Virus record (IMG/VR): IMGVR_UViG_3300025707_000484
Origin: a virus
Lineage: Duplodnaviria; Caudoviricetes
Strand: one strand, 5' to 3'
DNA length: 64,000 nt
Shown in pieces: positions 18,740 through 22,952 of the stretch (within the stretch, counting starts at the first letter, position 1; the number at the start of each line of letters is the position of its first letter). The position numbers and the translations under genes were made by a program. The notes beneath the pieces were generated by a model. The model was given only the letters and a program-made list of their open reading frames with translations, made no database searches and was not told where the DNA came from.

Positions 18740-20187
18740 TACTGCCAGTTAATTTTATCTACTGTAAACGGATATTCTGCCTCCCTATAAAAACTTTTCC
18801 TTTTTGTTAAGTGACGTTTTGCAAACTTACAAGTACTCGTTATATCCCATATTTGCACAAAGTCCTTGTCCTCTGCTTTACGGACGCCACGCCCGATGCT
18901 CTGTATAACCCGCACAAAACTTTTTCCTGGTTCTATTAACACAAGATTAAATATTCGCGGGATGTTAATTCCTACTGATGCAACGCCATACGTTGCTATA
19001 ATGATTTTTGCTTCTGCTGTACGTACTTCATCATAATGCTCTTTACGCTCATCCGCTTTTGTAGCACCACTGATGAATACACTATCCTTTAATTTTAATT
19101 GTATTGCTTTACCAGCACTAATTCTGTCTACAAGTATAAGTGTATTGCCACTCTTTTTAACATCATTTAAAAACTCGCCTATATACGATACCCTATCCTC
19201 GTTAGTAAGCAAATACTTTAATTCGCTTTGATAGTTATTATACTCACCATAGTCCTGTAACTGCACGATATTCACGTGACAGTTTGCCAGAACGCCCTTC
19301 TCCTGCAAATCGGCGGCAGCTACCCTATTGACTACTTCCCCTATGCTGACACGCAGTGACATCCATTCGAATTGCTCCTTGGGTATGGTTCCAGTTAAAC
19401 CCCAACGTATGGGTACATGAGACAATTGCTGGGTCAGTAACTGCTTGAGCACGTCTGCCTTACTCTGATGTACCTCATCTACTATCACACAGCAAACGTC
19501 CTCTATAAAGTCTTCAAACGTTATATCTGCTTGAGCATTACGAGTACGCTTCATCAGTATATTAAGGGATTGCCACGTACATATAGTATGAGTGTGTCCA
19601 AACTCTTTTCTATCTCCATAGAACACACCTACATCTAAACCCAAGTTGGCATAGTCTTCCTCTGTTTGAGTAACTAAACTCTTATTGGGTACTATAACTA
19701 TTGTCCTACCATATGGCTCACATTTGTGACTGAGTATTGCTGTAACAAGTGTCTTACCAGCACCAGTAGCAACCTCTTGAATGGACTGCGGGGATTGTAG
19801 AAAGTTATTGATAACCTCTACTTGGTAATCTCGCAATATAATAGGTTGCCCTTCGTGCGTATGTTTTTTAGGCCATTTATATTCACTATAACTAACTTCA
19901 GTTACTGGCTCAAATACTAAATCAACTGGCTTACGATAATCTATCAGATCAATTTTATAATTAGAAATGTCATCTAATATGTCTGGCAAGAGATTAATAA
20001 ACGTGCTACCGCCCAATTGGAAGAAACTTATTTTGCCATCCCAGCGTCCTAAACGAACTGCTGGCATAAATCGCGCATGAGGAATATCGAATTTAAACTT
20101 ATTAGATAACTTTCGTCTATCCGTTAAGTCTAATCCCTCAAATTTACAATTTACTTCGTCTTTTAAATATAACTTACACTTTGGCAT
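18739..20187 (-). CDS. uvsW: UvsW-like SF2 DNA helicase
   Basis: LRDYQ, ATGAGKT, DEVH, GLTGT, QSIGRGVR; start set at MPKC. Confidence 0.92.
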   Translation of the reverse strand: MPKCKLYLKDEVNCKFEGLDLTDRRKLSNKFKFDIPHARFMPAVRLGRWDGKISFFQLGGSTFINLLPDILDDISNYKIDLIDYRKPVDLVFEPVTEVSYSEYKWPKKHTHEGQPIILRDYQVEVINNFLQSPQSIQEVATGAGKTLVTAILSHKCEPYGRTIVIVPNKSLVTQTEEDYANLGLDVGVFYGDRKEFGHTHTICTWQSLNILMKRTRNAQADITFEDFIEDVCCVIVDEVHQSKADVLKQLLTQQLSHVPIRWGLTGTIPKEQFEWMSLRVSIGEVVNRVAAADLQEKGVLANCHVNIVQLQDYGEYNNYQSELKYLLTNEDRVSYIGEFLNDVKKSGNTLILVDRISAGKAIQLKLKDSVFISGATKADERKEHYDEVRTAEAKIIIATYGVASVGINIPRIFNLVLIEPGKSFVRVIQSIGRGVRKAEDKDFVQIWDITSTCKFAKRHLTKRKSFYREAEYPFTVDKINWQ

Positions 20188-21124
20188 AATAATTTTGACC
20201 AGGCCCAACCATTCCTTCCTTTGATTTTATATTACTATAATAACATACTTTGGGTATTTGGTCAATTAAAATGTTAAAACTATTCTCGTTTACCATTCGT
20301 GTAAAAAATATCATTTGTGGTTCAATATTACTTTGTATCAATGTTTGTATTGAATAACTATAATAAACATCACAATTAGACTTCATCTTGTGACTTGGTG
20401 GTAATAACACTACACTAATTTTATTTTTATTCACTAATTTATTAACTACTTTAGTTACTAATTCACTATAGTGTCCTAAATTAGGATCTTCGTTATTGTC
20501 TGGCTTATAAAATACTATAGGTGTTCTCTTATACTTTAGAGCGTATTGTATAATCTGCTCAAGTTTAGAATGCTCATTTTTACTGCCAGTAAACAACGTC
20601 ACATATTGATTATTGAGCATTGTATGCTCTACTGAATCGTCTAATAAACCTAAAACGTTACTACTTAATCCATAACACAACTCAATAGACTTATCTATTA
20701 ATTGCCACACATTTTCAACTTTATTCTGCTTAAGATATTCTATCAATTCATCACTAGCATTTTTCATAATAGGTTTGCCATTTATGAAATCTAACTGAAT
20801 AAGATGATTGTGAATTTCTGATTGTACTTTTTCTATTTCATCTAAATAATAGCAAACATCTTCATCAAAAATAACATCTTCTTCCATATCATTATTACGC
20901 AAATAATTAGCAAGAAATAATAAATTGGGTTCGCTTAAATTAAAAATCCAAGCATCTTCTTCCGGGTCATAATAAACATTTTGGGCCGCTTCCTTAACAT
21001 ACTCATAAAATTGCTGTGATATTTTTTGGACATACGAAGTGCCCCATTGTTCTAAATCGAACTCAGGCACCCTTACGTGAATACTATCGTCTTGTATGGA
21101 AACTTGCCAGCAATTATATTTCAT
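20174..21124 (-). CDS. hypothetical protein
   Basis: 316-aa ORF coupled to uvsW. Confidence 0.75.
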   Translation of the reverse strand: MKYNCWQVSIQDDSIHVRVPEFDLEQWGTSYVQKISQQFYEYVKEAAQNVYYDPEEDAWIFNLSEPNLLFLANYLRNNDMEEDVIFDEDVCYYLDEIEKVQSEIHNHLIQLDFINGKPIMKNASDELIEYLKQNKVENVWQLIDKSIELCYGLSSNVLGLLDDSVEHTMLNNQYVTLFTGSKNEHSKLEQIIQYALKYKRTPIVFYKPDNNEDPNLGHYSELVTKVVNKLVNKNKISVVLLPPSHKMKSNCDVYYSYSIQTLIQSNIEPQMIFFTRMVNENSFNILIDQIPKVCYYSNIKSKEGMVGPGQNYYAKV

Positions 21125-21130
21125 ATCAAT

Positions 21131-21155
21131 AAAAAGGGAGGCTCATGGGCCTCCC
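21131..21155 (-). terminator. intrinsic terminator of the early module
   Basis: GGGAGGC/GCCTCCC stem followed by T5 on the minus strand. Confidence 0.8.
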
Positions 21156-21165
21156 CGAAGCTTAT

Positions 21166-21199
21166 AGATACTTATAGTTGGAGCGATACTAAAGTATCT
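21166..21199 (-). promoter_or_regulatory. 3'-UTR hairpin with anti-RBS loop
   Basis: 12-bp stem with one bulge; loop ATCGCTCCA. Confidence 0.55.
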
Positions 21200-21219
21200 T
21201 TTAGGAAATTGTTATTATT

Positions 21220-22284
21220 TTAGTTAGCCGACGCCTGCTTACTGACGCGGGTCATAACCGTTGTCTCCGCTAGGCGCTTCCAGTTGTCTTTCGACATTTT
21301 ACGCAGGTCACCAATCTTCAGTGCCATACGTAGGCTCATTTCCCGAAGCCTATCCTTGTTTTCTTCCATGTAGTCCAAAATCTCGTCCTCATCGGAAGAC
21401 TTAAACCCGTATCCTACAAACAACTCACCATTCTTGGCAATGTCCTTAATACGGAGTATTTTGTCGCGCATTGTATCGAGCGTCAAATCCAGGTAATGGC
21501 AACGCGACTGAAGTGCGTCCAAGTGATCTTTGATCTTCTTGCTCCGGACGTTTTCAAACTTCACGTTGGTGATAAAGATCGCTGAGCCATTAAAGTCAAA
21601 CATATTCGGAATCCCTTCCGCTCTCAGTTTAGCACTATCAGCATTCCAGTGGATTCGGCGTCTCTTACCTGAGTCCAATGCCGCTTTCAGTATGTTGAGT
21701 GACAAGTCATCAAACAATACAGTGTCGCAGTCATCAAACACTAGCACATTGTTCTTGTCGCTGTATTCATACAGTTTGGCGTAAAGTCCAAGGGCAGTCA
21801 TCGCGCCTTTGACTACGTCATAACGTATCTTCTTACCAGCAATCTTGTCAAACAATACGGCTTTCTCAAGAGTGGTTTCCACAATGTAGGACTTACCAAC
21901 CCCTGGAGGGCCTGTTACGATCATTGCTCGAACATCACCATCGATTGTGGCTTGGGTCATACTGCCCAAGATCTCAAATCGCTCTGCAATGCGAGCCATA
22001 ACCTCAGTGTCGGTCTCCCCCGCTTCAACAGAGGCGCCAACCATTTTAGCGGCCGCTTCTTCTGCTACTGACTCACCCACACGTTCATAATGTAGTGGGG
22101 AATCTACCTTAACACGGATGTTCCGCTGAGGGTAAGCAGAGTTGCCAGTTCCATCAACTGTGATGTAACCACCTTTTTTGCCCACTTTATAATCGCGGAC
22201 CAATGGGAATACTACATCTTCAACTATCCCACCGGGTGCATCCGCGTGGTATCCTTTCGTTACTGAAACATATTGTGTTGACAT
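21220..22284 (-). CDS. AAA+/P-loop ATPase (early protein)
   Basis: GPPGVGKS, LVFDDCD, FITN, ALQSR. Confidence 0.88.
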   Translation of the reverse strand: MSTQYVSVTKGYHADAPGGIVEDVVFPLVRDYKVGKKGGYITVDGTGNSAYPQRNIRVKVDSPLHYERVGESVAEEAAAKMVGASVEAGETDTEVMARIAERFEILGSMTQATIDGDVRAMIVTGPPGVGKSYIVETTLEKAVLFDKIAGKKIRYDVVKGAMTALGLYAKLYEYSDKNNVLVFDDCDTVLFDDLSLNILKAALDSGKRRRIHWNADSAKLRAEGIPNMFDFNGSAIFITNVKFENVRSKKIKDHLDALQSRCHYLDLTLDTMRDKILRIKDIAKNGELFVGYGFKSSDEDEILDYMEENKDRLREMSLRMALKIGDLRKMSKDNWKRLAETTVMTRVSKQASAN

Positions 22285-22307
22285 AATTCGCTCCTGTATG
22301 TCGTTGG

Positions 22308-22691
22308 TTAAACTAATTCGTAGGGTTTACTGTAGTTCCCTACTTCGAGGTTGAAGTAAAAAGCGGTATGGAAATAATCCACCATCGCATCACTCTTGTC
22401 AAACCATTCCCGGCCGCCTTCTGCTTTACCGGGTGCTGTCTTAATGACATCAACAATGTCATCAAACAATTTGGCATGTTCACCATACATGTGAGTGTGG
22501 TAATGATTGACCTGAGCATACCCGCGATCACCTTCACGCATTATGTCGGAAAAATCAACATTGCCCTTCTTAATGGTAACTGTCACCGATGAGTGATGTT
22601 GCTTCTTTACTCCAAATTTCAACTCGGGTCCGAATTCCTCTTTAAGAGTTTCTCGGATTGCCTTTACTTCGTTTGTTCGTATATAAGCCAT
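22308..22691 (-). CDS. LPD29-like (large polyvalent protein-associated domain) early protein
   Basis: IRETLKEEF..LKFGV; WFDKSDAMVDYF. Confidence 0.6.
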   Translation of the reverse strand: MAYIRTNEVKAIRETLKEEFGPELKFGVKKQHHSSVTVTIKKGNVDFSDIMREGDRGYAQVNHYHTHMYGEHAKLFDDIVDVIKTAPGKAEGGREWFDKSDAMVDYFHTAFYFNLEVGNYSKPYELV

Positions 22692-22697
22692 TACGCC

Positions 22698-22952
22698 TTA
22701 TCTCCGTGAGTGGTGGTTGGTTTCAACTACGCATCTTGGGACGCCATAACGGCCATCCATATTCCAACGATGCGTCAATTTGCCTTCGATCCCATACCGT
22801 TCAACAGTAAGGGGCGTATCAAACCCGCCTTTGAGCAGGTTAAATTCTGCAACCGCATCCATAAGGGTAGCGGTGGATGCGGATATAAAAATCCGGGCAC
22901 CACCTAGTATGGGTTCACGGTAAAAAACTTTAAAACAGCCTTGATCTAACAC
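22698..22952 (-). CDS. hypothetical early protein
   Basis: 84 aa, GTG start, first gene after the sigma70-like promoter. Confidence 0.5.
   Translation of the reverse strand: MLDQGCFKVFYREPILGGARIFISASTATLMDAVAEFNLLKGGFDTPLTVERYGIEGKLTHRWNMDGRYGVPRCVVETNHHSRR

Follow-up and report, generated by a model that had tools for sequence, protein, structure and literature searches.

Can the 3′ end of a phage messenger RNA (mRNA) control the start of its own translation? The question is raised by an AAA-type ATPase gene in the 64,000-nt stretch analysed here (the window), which is part of the 322,647-bp IMG/VR jumbo-phage record IMGVR_UViG_3300025707_000484 (35.7% G+C) and has T4-like replication genes close by. 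In this gene's 3′ untranslated region (3′ UTR), a hairpin displays a loop heptamer, UCGCUCC, that is perfectly complementary to GGAGCGA, the Shine-Dalgarno (SD) block of the gene's own ribosome-binding site (RBS). Comparison of related loci indicates that complementarity between such a 3′ element and the RBS is kept by selection across many lineages while the sequences change (Table 1), and on the reading that we favour this pairing would limit translation.

Structure of the 3′ UTR

The 3′ UTR runs from the stop codon through 20 A/U-rich nt into the hairpin and, 9 nt further on, into the terminator (coordinates in Table 2). Read from 21199 to 21166, the hairpin is AGAUACUU-UAGU[AUCGCUCCA]ACUA-U-AAGUAUCU, with AUCGCUCCA as its loop. 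An earlier sequence-only reading of this DNA had described a 12-bp stem with one bulge, the loop TCGCTCC, GGAGCGA at 22288-22294 lying 3 nt before the ATG, and a terminator; the sequence and RNAfold bear out this anatomy exactly. RNAfold predicted the hairpin and the terminator hairpin alone, with the minimum free energy structure identical to the centroid (-25 kcal/mol, z = -3.2) and the loop heptamer unpaired (P = 0.96). The predicted opening cost is 0.03 kcal/mol for the loop and 1.5 kcal/mol for the SD in its local fold, and the predicted loop/SD duplex has an energy of -11.4 kcal/mol versus -6.6 (full leader) to -5.6 kcal/mol (block alone) for the SD paired with the tail of 16S ribosomal RNA (rRNA).

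The terminator has the GC-rich stem-loop and U tract of an intrinsic (Rho-independent) terminator, was also recovered by a consensus scan, and is kept in relatives, where its stem changes are compensatory. Its stem holds GGGGAGG and CCUCCC, that is, SD-like and anti-SD-like words. Pairing of the loop with the terminator arm GGGGAGG, as in antitermination, was considered and rejected, since it comprises 4 bp only and is missing from other lineages. No Rfam 15 family was matched, at the gathering threshold, in any part of the 64-kb window. Additional copies of the hairpin arms did not exceed chance there, arm words occurred at expected counts in the genome, and a scan of viral contigs for GATACTT..AAGTATC returned unrelated AT-rich palindromes only.

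Conservation within the window's clade

Megablast of the locus found no match among cultured phages, and relatives were therefore sought through the protein, by protein-guided searches of viral and metagenome contigs. The clade of the window (WIN) comprises L002, L082/L083/L070, L084/L085 and L347 besides the window itself, at ~70-98% protein identity. Around the hairpin, the 3′ UTRs of this clade cannot be aligned between lineages, yet the hairpin is kept, and both the loop core CGCUCC (21180-21185 in the window) and the RBS sequence GGAGCG are invariant. According to RNAalifold, run on six aligned relatives, the outer stem is invariant and three inner-stem pairs have changed on both sides; the inner stem occurs in three different pairing sequences in the clade, the third of them in L347. 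That stem, loop core and RBS are kept amid unalignable flanks argues that the clade hairpin is a selected RNA structure displaying an invariant 6-nt anti-SD.

Complementarity in other lineages of the ATPase family

The ATPase matches PHROG 1250 (phrog_1250, E = 2.7e-82), has weak Pfam AAA_16/AAA matches, and by tblastn is 41% identical to PA5oct gp126 and 35-40% identical to T4-like nrdC.10; a PDB sequence search returned spurious matches only. By these similarities it appears to be an uncharacterised P-loop/AAA-type ATPase homologous to T4 nrdC.10 and PA5oct gp126. At least eight other phrog_1250 lineages carry a perfect complement of 7-11 nt to their own, differing RBS, mostly in a hairpin loop, and in every such lineage this 3′ element comes after the stop codon and before the terminator (Table 1). 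The group B pair can also be written with a bulge mark, as UAGGAGC^UAG / UCUAGCUCCUA, and among the lineage-specific pairs of RBS and complement are GGAGCUAAC / GUUAGCUCC, AGGAGCUAGAC / GUCUAGCUCCU and UGUGGGAGG / CCUCCCACA. The covariation of loop and RBS in homologous loci to which the sequence-only reading had pointed is seen at this family level, where differing RBS flanks carry matching 3′ UTR complements.

Table 1. RBS sequences and their 3′ UTR complements in lineages of the ATPase family
Lineage	Protein identity to window	RBS	3′ element	Pairing and placement
L002-L005	95%	GGAGCGA	CUCGCUCCA	loop; 7 perfect pairs
L082, L083, L070	96-98%	GGAGCGA (L070: contig cut, RBS unseen)	UCCGCUCCA	loop; 6 pairs
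L084, L085	72%	AGGAGCG	CCGCUCC(U)	loop; 7 pairs, one gained at the other end
L347	~70%	GGAGCGA (as in L086)	AACGCUCCA	loop; 6 pairs
L056 group		GGAGCUA(AC/GU/AA)	(GU)UAGCUCC	just 5′ of hairpin
L021/L024		CGGAGCA	UGCUCCG	just 5′ of hairpin
Group A (270-aa form)		AGGAGCUAGA(C)-AUG	(G)UCUAGCUCCU	hairpin loop; 10-11 nt
Group B		UAGGAGC(C/A)UAG	UCUAGCUCCUA	hairpin loop; 7 bp, bulge, 3-4 bp
L389		CAGGAGUUCA	UGAACUCCUG	
L392 (start corrected)		AGGAGUAG	CUACUCCU	
L075 supergroup		(U)GUGGGAGG	CCUCCCAC(A)	

The L075 supergroup comprises ~40 distinct loci with 70-100% mutual identity and very different 3′ UTR layouts. A perfect complement of at least 7 nt (7-9 nt) is present in all of these loci but two, in which the start codon is probably mis-assigned, and its place is the loop of a conserved hairpin in some loci and 2-5 nt past the stop codon in others, in 3′ UTRs that are otherwise unrelated. 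The two partners have changed together, from GGGAGG/CCUCCC to GGGAGA/UCUCCC, with a G.U intermediate (GGGAGG opposite UCUCCC) found elsewhere, and one sub-lineage that changed both partners (UGUGGGAGA with UCUCCCACA) reaches 13 bp with two G.U pairs. The word GTGGGAGR is rare, with 2-6 occurrences per L075-supergroup contig of 58-250 kb; in four of five contigs two of the copies flank the gene, and in the fifth the 3′ copy alone matches. The 3′ UTRs of L150-L200 in this supergroup also hold a conserved C-rich sequence, UUCCCCC(C)UAGUG, which adjoins the anti-SD hairpin on its 5′ side and contributes in part to the stem. This run is often preceded by an extra AU-rich hairpin, and its CCCCC block is partly complementary to the SD.

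Group A (loci L352-L395) has an ATPase form of ~270 aa, which lacks ~85 N-terminal residues and shows the longest RBS/3′ UTR complement; it is common in aquatic viral contigs, 300-kb ones included.

A weaker version of the feature occurs at gp126 of PA5oct, a cultured phage with published RNA-seq data, where GGAGUAGCAUUU-AUG faces AUGCUACU, the 3′ arm of a 3′ UTR hairpin; the two can form 8 Watson-Crick pairs, or 12 when G.U pairs are included. The 3′ UTR of gp126 is not among the four non-coding RNAs of the PA5oct paper. In this phage (L226, 248335-250250), the stretch from RBS to AUG, GGAGUAGCAUUU, repeats the 5′ arm of the hairpin and could therefore compete for its 3′ arm.

Statistical support for pairing

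First, naive permutations of own versus cross pairs were weak (p = 0.13, then p = 0.03). A-rich leaders match the CCCCUUUU tails of terminators, and the SD-like and anti-SD-like words in terminators inflate naive searches for complementarity between 3′ UTR and RBS. When the test was redone on pre-terminator 3′ UTRs, with terminators masked and an SD core required, an own match of at least 7 nt was found in 4 of the 15 clades having a 3′ UTR, versus 1.4% cross-clade (binomial 4e-5). Without the discovery clade this 15-clade test gave 9e-4. Two or more matches arose in 0 of 100,000 permutations. With all data included, 11 of 24 protein clusters (80% identity) match, compared with a mean of 1.9 and a maximum of 8 in cluster permutations; none of 200,000 such permutations reached 11, even with a null that related clusters inflate. 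The matching clades are scattered over the protein tree and have sister clades without the element.

Covariation is also visible base by base. Among 58 distinct RBS/anti-SD pairs anchored on GGAG, the position 3′ of the core is C-G in 21, G-C in 28, A-U in 2, U-A in 1 and mismatched in 4, and flank positions are Watson-Crick paired at a frequency of 0.55 versus 0.38 +/- 0.02 with shuffled partners (0/5000). The 5′ partner is always the SD, extending in group A to the base before the AUG, and the 3′ partner always lies within the transcript, is usually predicted to be unpaired and is usually in a hairpin loop. Predicted duplex energies across lineages range from -9.5 to -20.7 kcal/mol versus -5.6 to -9.6 kcal/mol for the same SDs with the 16S tail. 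Since complementarity is conserved and sequence is not, we take the two sites to be base-pairing partners rather than a protein recognition site.

Proposed mechanism

Based on these comparisons, we consider it reasonably probable that the exposed anti-SD of the ATPase mRNA pairs with the mRNA's own RBS, occludes the SD, limits initiation and thereby caps the protein made per transcript. The anti-SD, placed between stop codon and terminator and in the window forming the loop of the conserved hairpin, could begin to pair only after the 3′ end has been transcribed. It would then cover the SD with a loop-to-strand helix of 6-7 bp in the window and of up to 11-13 bp in relatives, each helix predicted to be more stable than the pairing of the same SD with 16S rRNA; further initiation would be limited and the yield of each transcript would reach its cap. 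Pairing in vivo, repression of initiation and action within one molecule are what we infer here, and the most economical reading is the one established for icaR (PMC3868564), by which the anti-SD in the phage mRNA would capture the SD after synthesis of the 3′ end and lower further initiation.

More tentatively, mRNAs of this kind might be self-closing across the family, their SD being captured at the end of transcription, such that translation would be essentially co-transcriptional. The element would then act as a factor-independent, RNA-encoded limiter of protein burst size, either retained in jumbo and other large phages of aquatic habitats or evolved in them time and again, and where it lies 2-5 nt past the stop codon it might be re-opened by terminating ribosomes. 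We regard this broader picture as possible rather than probable.

Opposing evidence and alternative explanations

Several observations weigh against the proposed capping of translation. In the window's own clade, the seventh pair was lost without compensation in the RBS in L082/L083/L070 and in L347, which leaves the 6-bp CGCUCC/GGAGCG. The sequence-only reading had supposed long-range pairing or a 3′ UTR-derived RNA acting on the gene's own RBS; family-level covariation supports such action, whereas the clade from which the idea came keeps the 6-bp core only. The element or the whole 3′ UTR is missing in L020, L027, L053, L066/69, L079/81, L036/94, L014 and the T4-like phages, where (EcS1, Tonic) the next gene starts 7-8 nt after the stop codon and hence there is no 3′ UTR. 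In VAP7 the sole match is a repeated promoter-like motif. The permutations and shuffles leave part of the phylogenetic non-independence in place, and a strand-asymmetry test of G.U versus A.C, meant to show whether the helix belongs to the sense RNA, did not favour the sense strand. The RBS in the window is probably internal to a three-gene operon, and terminating upstream ribosomes could therefore keep it open. Since the coupling of transcription and translation loads ribosomes before the 3′ UTR exists, repression would be delayed and partial.

Taken alone, moreover, the match in the window is within chance. Using crude gene calls over the whole phage, from which the ATPase itself is absent, we recorded for each leader (-20 to -1) the longest perfect complement that contains an SD-like core and lies within <=100 nt after the stop codon. 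Matches of at least 7 nt were found in 0.75% of mismatched gene/3′ UTR pairs versus 1.4% (3/217) of own pairs, and ~1.6 such matches are expected per genome. There is thus no genome-wide tendency to own-RBS complements in this phage, and the feature is therefore specific to the gene rather than a property of the phage. That the match sits in a stable hairpin's loop counts somewhat in its favour, yet a scan of 64 kb could yield such a match by luck, and only the relatives give the match its significance.

These figures, together with the fact that any CUCC loop complements any GGAG, are what would speak for an ordinary stabilising hairpin before a terminator whose complementarity to the RBS is coincidental. 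We consider this very unlikely, since the complementarity recurs with lineage-specific flanks in a number of clusters that no permutation equalled, and the loop core has stayed invariant while stem and flanks changed. In VAP7 the sole match is a repeated promoter-like motif.

The least probable of the alternatives, to our minds scarcely credible, is that the two copies act at the level of DNA, as inverted repeats (sites of recombination or inversion, the termini of a mobile cassette or a pair of sites bound by a protein), or that an antisense gene has the 3′ copy as its RBS. The gene is formally bracketed by inverted repeats of 7-11 bp, and the sense strand was not favoured by the strand-asymmetry test. 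However, only complementarity is conserved and the sequence varies by lineage, the opposite of a protein recognition site, and the two copies keep to the SD and to the inside of the transcript. No locus that we read has an inverted arrangement, and the promoter, where recognisable, lies upstream and the terminator downstream of the gene. Antisense open reading frames (ORFs) of at least 30 aa behind an antisense GGAG occur in 10 of 83 loci only and are not conserved, and in the window no start codon follows the 3′ copy. Placement at the SD and in the transcript, the lack of inverted loci and the rarity of antisense ORFs lead us to reject both DNA-level repeats and an antisense RBS.

It is more conceivable, though still unlikely, that the stretch from hairpin to terminator is a 3′ UTR-derived small RNA (sRNA), released or separately stabilised, whose seed acts in trans on the parent mRNA and possibly on other phage RBSs. 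The layout is sRNA-like, in that a conserved seed is exposed and an A/U-rich linker leads to the terminator of the mRNA itself, U tail included. Lineages L056 and L021 have a single-stranded seed on the 5′ side of a hairpin. Hfq-type sRNAs derived from 3′ UTRs (CpxQ, SroC) and the C-rich-loop sRNAs of Firmicutes (RsaE) likewise combine a parent terminator with an exposed conserved seed that pairs with SD regions. Such sRNAs act on other mRNAs, whereas here it is the RBS of the parent gene that co-varies with the seed. GGAGCGA does stand at RBS-like positions of four more ORFs, five in all versus 1.6 expected, but this enrichment is weak, as one of 64 trinucleotide extensions tested, and the relatives carry the motif almost exclusively as the pair that flanks the ATPase gene. 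The four ORFs (97-362 aa; G000 1933, 187965, 209488 and 270994, loci L397-L400) lie outside the window and have no PHROG match; the loop might act on them in trans, or their motifs might be there by chance.

Less likely than an sRNA, we think, is pairing that serves mRNA stability or processing instead of translational repression, whereby the leader and SD would be shielded from an endonuclease or a cleavage site would be made. The same conserved complementarity would be expected, and GGAG is a known target of T4 RegB. No RegB homologue (Pfam PF10715) was detected in the genome, in a search whose control was equally silent. There is a precedent in Bacillus subtilis hbs, in which a 14-bp helix between 5′ and 3′ UTR overlaps a site for RNase Y in the leader, and cleavage of the mRNA is modulated by this helix (Braun et al. 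2017, PMC5737220). This is likewise long-range UTR-UTR pairing in one bacterial mRNA, but the hbs helix leaves the SD uncovered, whereas the conserved partner in the ATPase family is always the SD itself, in group A as far as the last base ahead of the AUG. For RNase III, moreover, helices of 6-13 bp are short, and cleavage by this enzyme, whose typical substrates are longer, is doubtful.

Comparison with known systems

Capping of translation by a 3′ anti-SD, the reading that we prefer, has partial parallels in known systems. In lambda, the downstream element sib controls its gene via RNase III and 3′-5′ decay, without SD pairing; in P1, the antisense RNA c4, an immunity factor, is cut from the same transcript and pairs through its loops with an RBS region, and it lies upstream of its target. 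The ATPase case resembles these in that a phage gene would be controlled by a downstream element, as with sib, or by an RNA of the same transcript, as with c4. In hok/sok, the 3′-end element fbi pairs with the 5′ element tac and keeps the full-length mRNA translationally inert, a model historically backed by phylogenetic covariation. The names fbi and tac are as used in PMC3562002. Unlike the case described here, hok pairs with the extreme 5′ end instead of the SD, is relieved by 3′ trimming and belongs to a toxin-antitoxin system, of which nothing hints at this locus: the partner is the SD, the gene encodes a 354-aa ATPase, and the search yielded neither an antisense promoter nor a conserved antisense ORF.

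The closest likeness is to icaR of Staphylococcus aureus, in which a UCCCCUG motif in the 3′ UTR pairs with the SD region of the same mRNA and blocks the initiation complex, a case that its authors termed a singular example (Ruiz de los Mozos et al. 2013, PMC3868564). Both systems have a C-rich anti-SD in the 3′ UTR that is complementary to the gene's own SD, in a self-contained, factor-independent design. As in icaR, the 3′ UTR motif complements its own SD (in the phage family, in 11 of 24 clusters as well), motif and SD are accessible in silico with a duplex that can compete with SD:16S pairing, and the pairing appears to be under selection. The bacterial example differs in its 3′ UTR of >100 nt (PMC3868564) and in the greater extent of its pairing, which yields a substrate for RNase III. 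In the phage ATPase mRNAs, the 3′ UTR is ~60-90 nt, the helix is 6-13 bp and mostly presented by a loop beside the terminator, and the evidence is comparative covariation over many lineages, in contrast to the experiments on icaR. The icaR 3′ UTR is reportedly ~390 nt long.

In the literature searched we found no case of pairing between 3′ UTR and SD in a dsDNA phage. What appears to be new here, judged from the sequences compared, is an element that is phage-borne, very compact, displayed in a loop beside the terminator and accompanied by a wide natural covariation series. More than 50 distinct natural pairs, in which RBS and 3′ element change together, form a series of the sort by which many RNA structures were established ahead of any experiment. 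If confirmed, phages would use 3′ UTRs to meter the translation of single genes, a loop-displayed anti-SD beside the terminator would offer synthetic biology a simple and portable rule, and the ATPase family of T4 nrdC.10 and PA5oct gp126 would be flagged as dose-sensitive and worth study. The idea lends itself to a direct test in PA5oct, which is in culture and shows the feature in weaker form.

Gene context and transcription unit

In relatives, the ATPase is encoded by a monocistronic unit with a consensus sigma-70 promoter, a leader of ~35 nt, the gene, the anti-SD and the terminator, in which a TTGACA-17-TATAAT promoter and the leader motif GUAAGUUAA / GUUUAAAUUAAU are found directly upstream of the ATPase RBS. 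The putative early expression of the ATPase is read solely from such sigma-70-type promoters. The window has two small ORFs, at 22698-22952 and 22308-22691, between leader motif and ATPase, as if the leader had received an insertion (Table 2). A consensus scan found no promoter-like site between the gene with the LPD29 domain and the ATPase, and the two are probably co-transcribed. With the promoter-like site and the leader motif upstream of both small ORFs, a three-gene operon is probable, in which the ATPase comes last.

Table 2. Features of the ATPase locus in the window
Feature	Position	Strand	Remarks
AAA-type ATPase gene, 354 aa	21220-22284	minus	from ORF list; ATG at 22284-22282
Shine-Dalgarno block GGAGCGA	22288-22294	minus	then AUU, AUG (3-nt gap); 5′ partner in proposed pairing
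3′ UTR hairpin	21166-21199	minus	8-bp outer stem, bulged U, 4-bp inner stem, 9-nt loop
Loop heptamer UCGCUCC (anti-SD)	21180-21186	minus	perfect complement of 22288-22294
Intrinsic terminator	21135-21156 (with U tract to 21130)	minus	8-bp GC-rich stem, 6-nt loop, then UUUUU
Upstream gene, 127 aa, LPD29 domain	22308-22691	minus	stop codon 24 nt before ATPase AUG
Small ORF, 84 aa, GTG start	22698-22952	minus	probably first in operon
Promoter-like GTGACA-16-TAGACT	23014-22987	minus	consensus match only
Leader motif GUAAGUUAA	22980-22972	minus	follows promoter-like site

On the other side of the terminator, a downstream ORF (20174-21124, minus strand) starts 5 nt past the U tract and has no recognisable SD. 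In several relatives (loci L018, L026 and L079), the downstream gene starts ~12 nt after a -10-like box, a spacing that suggests very short leaders or leaderless mRNAs for these downstream genes.

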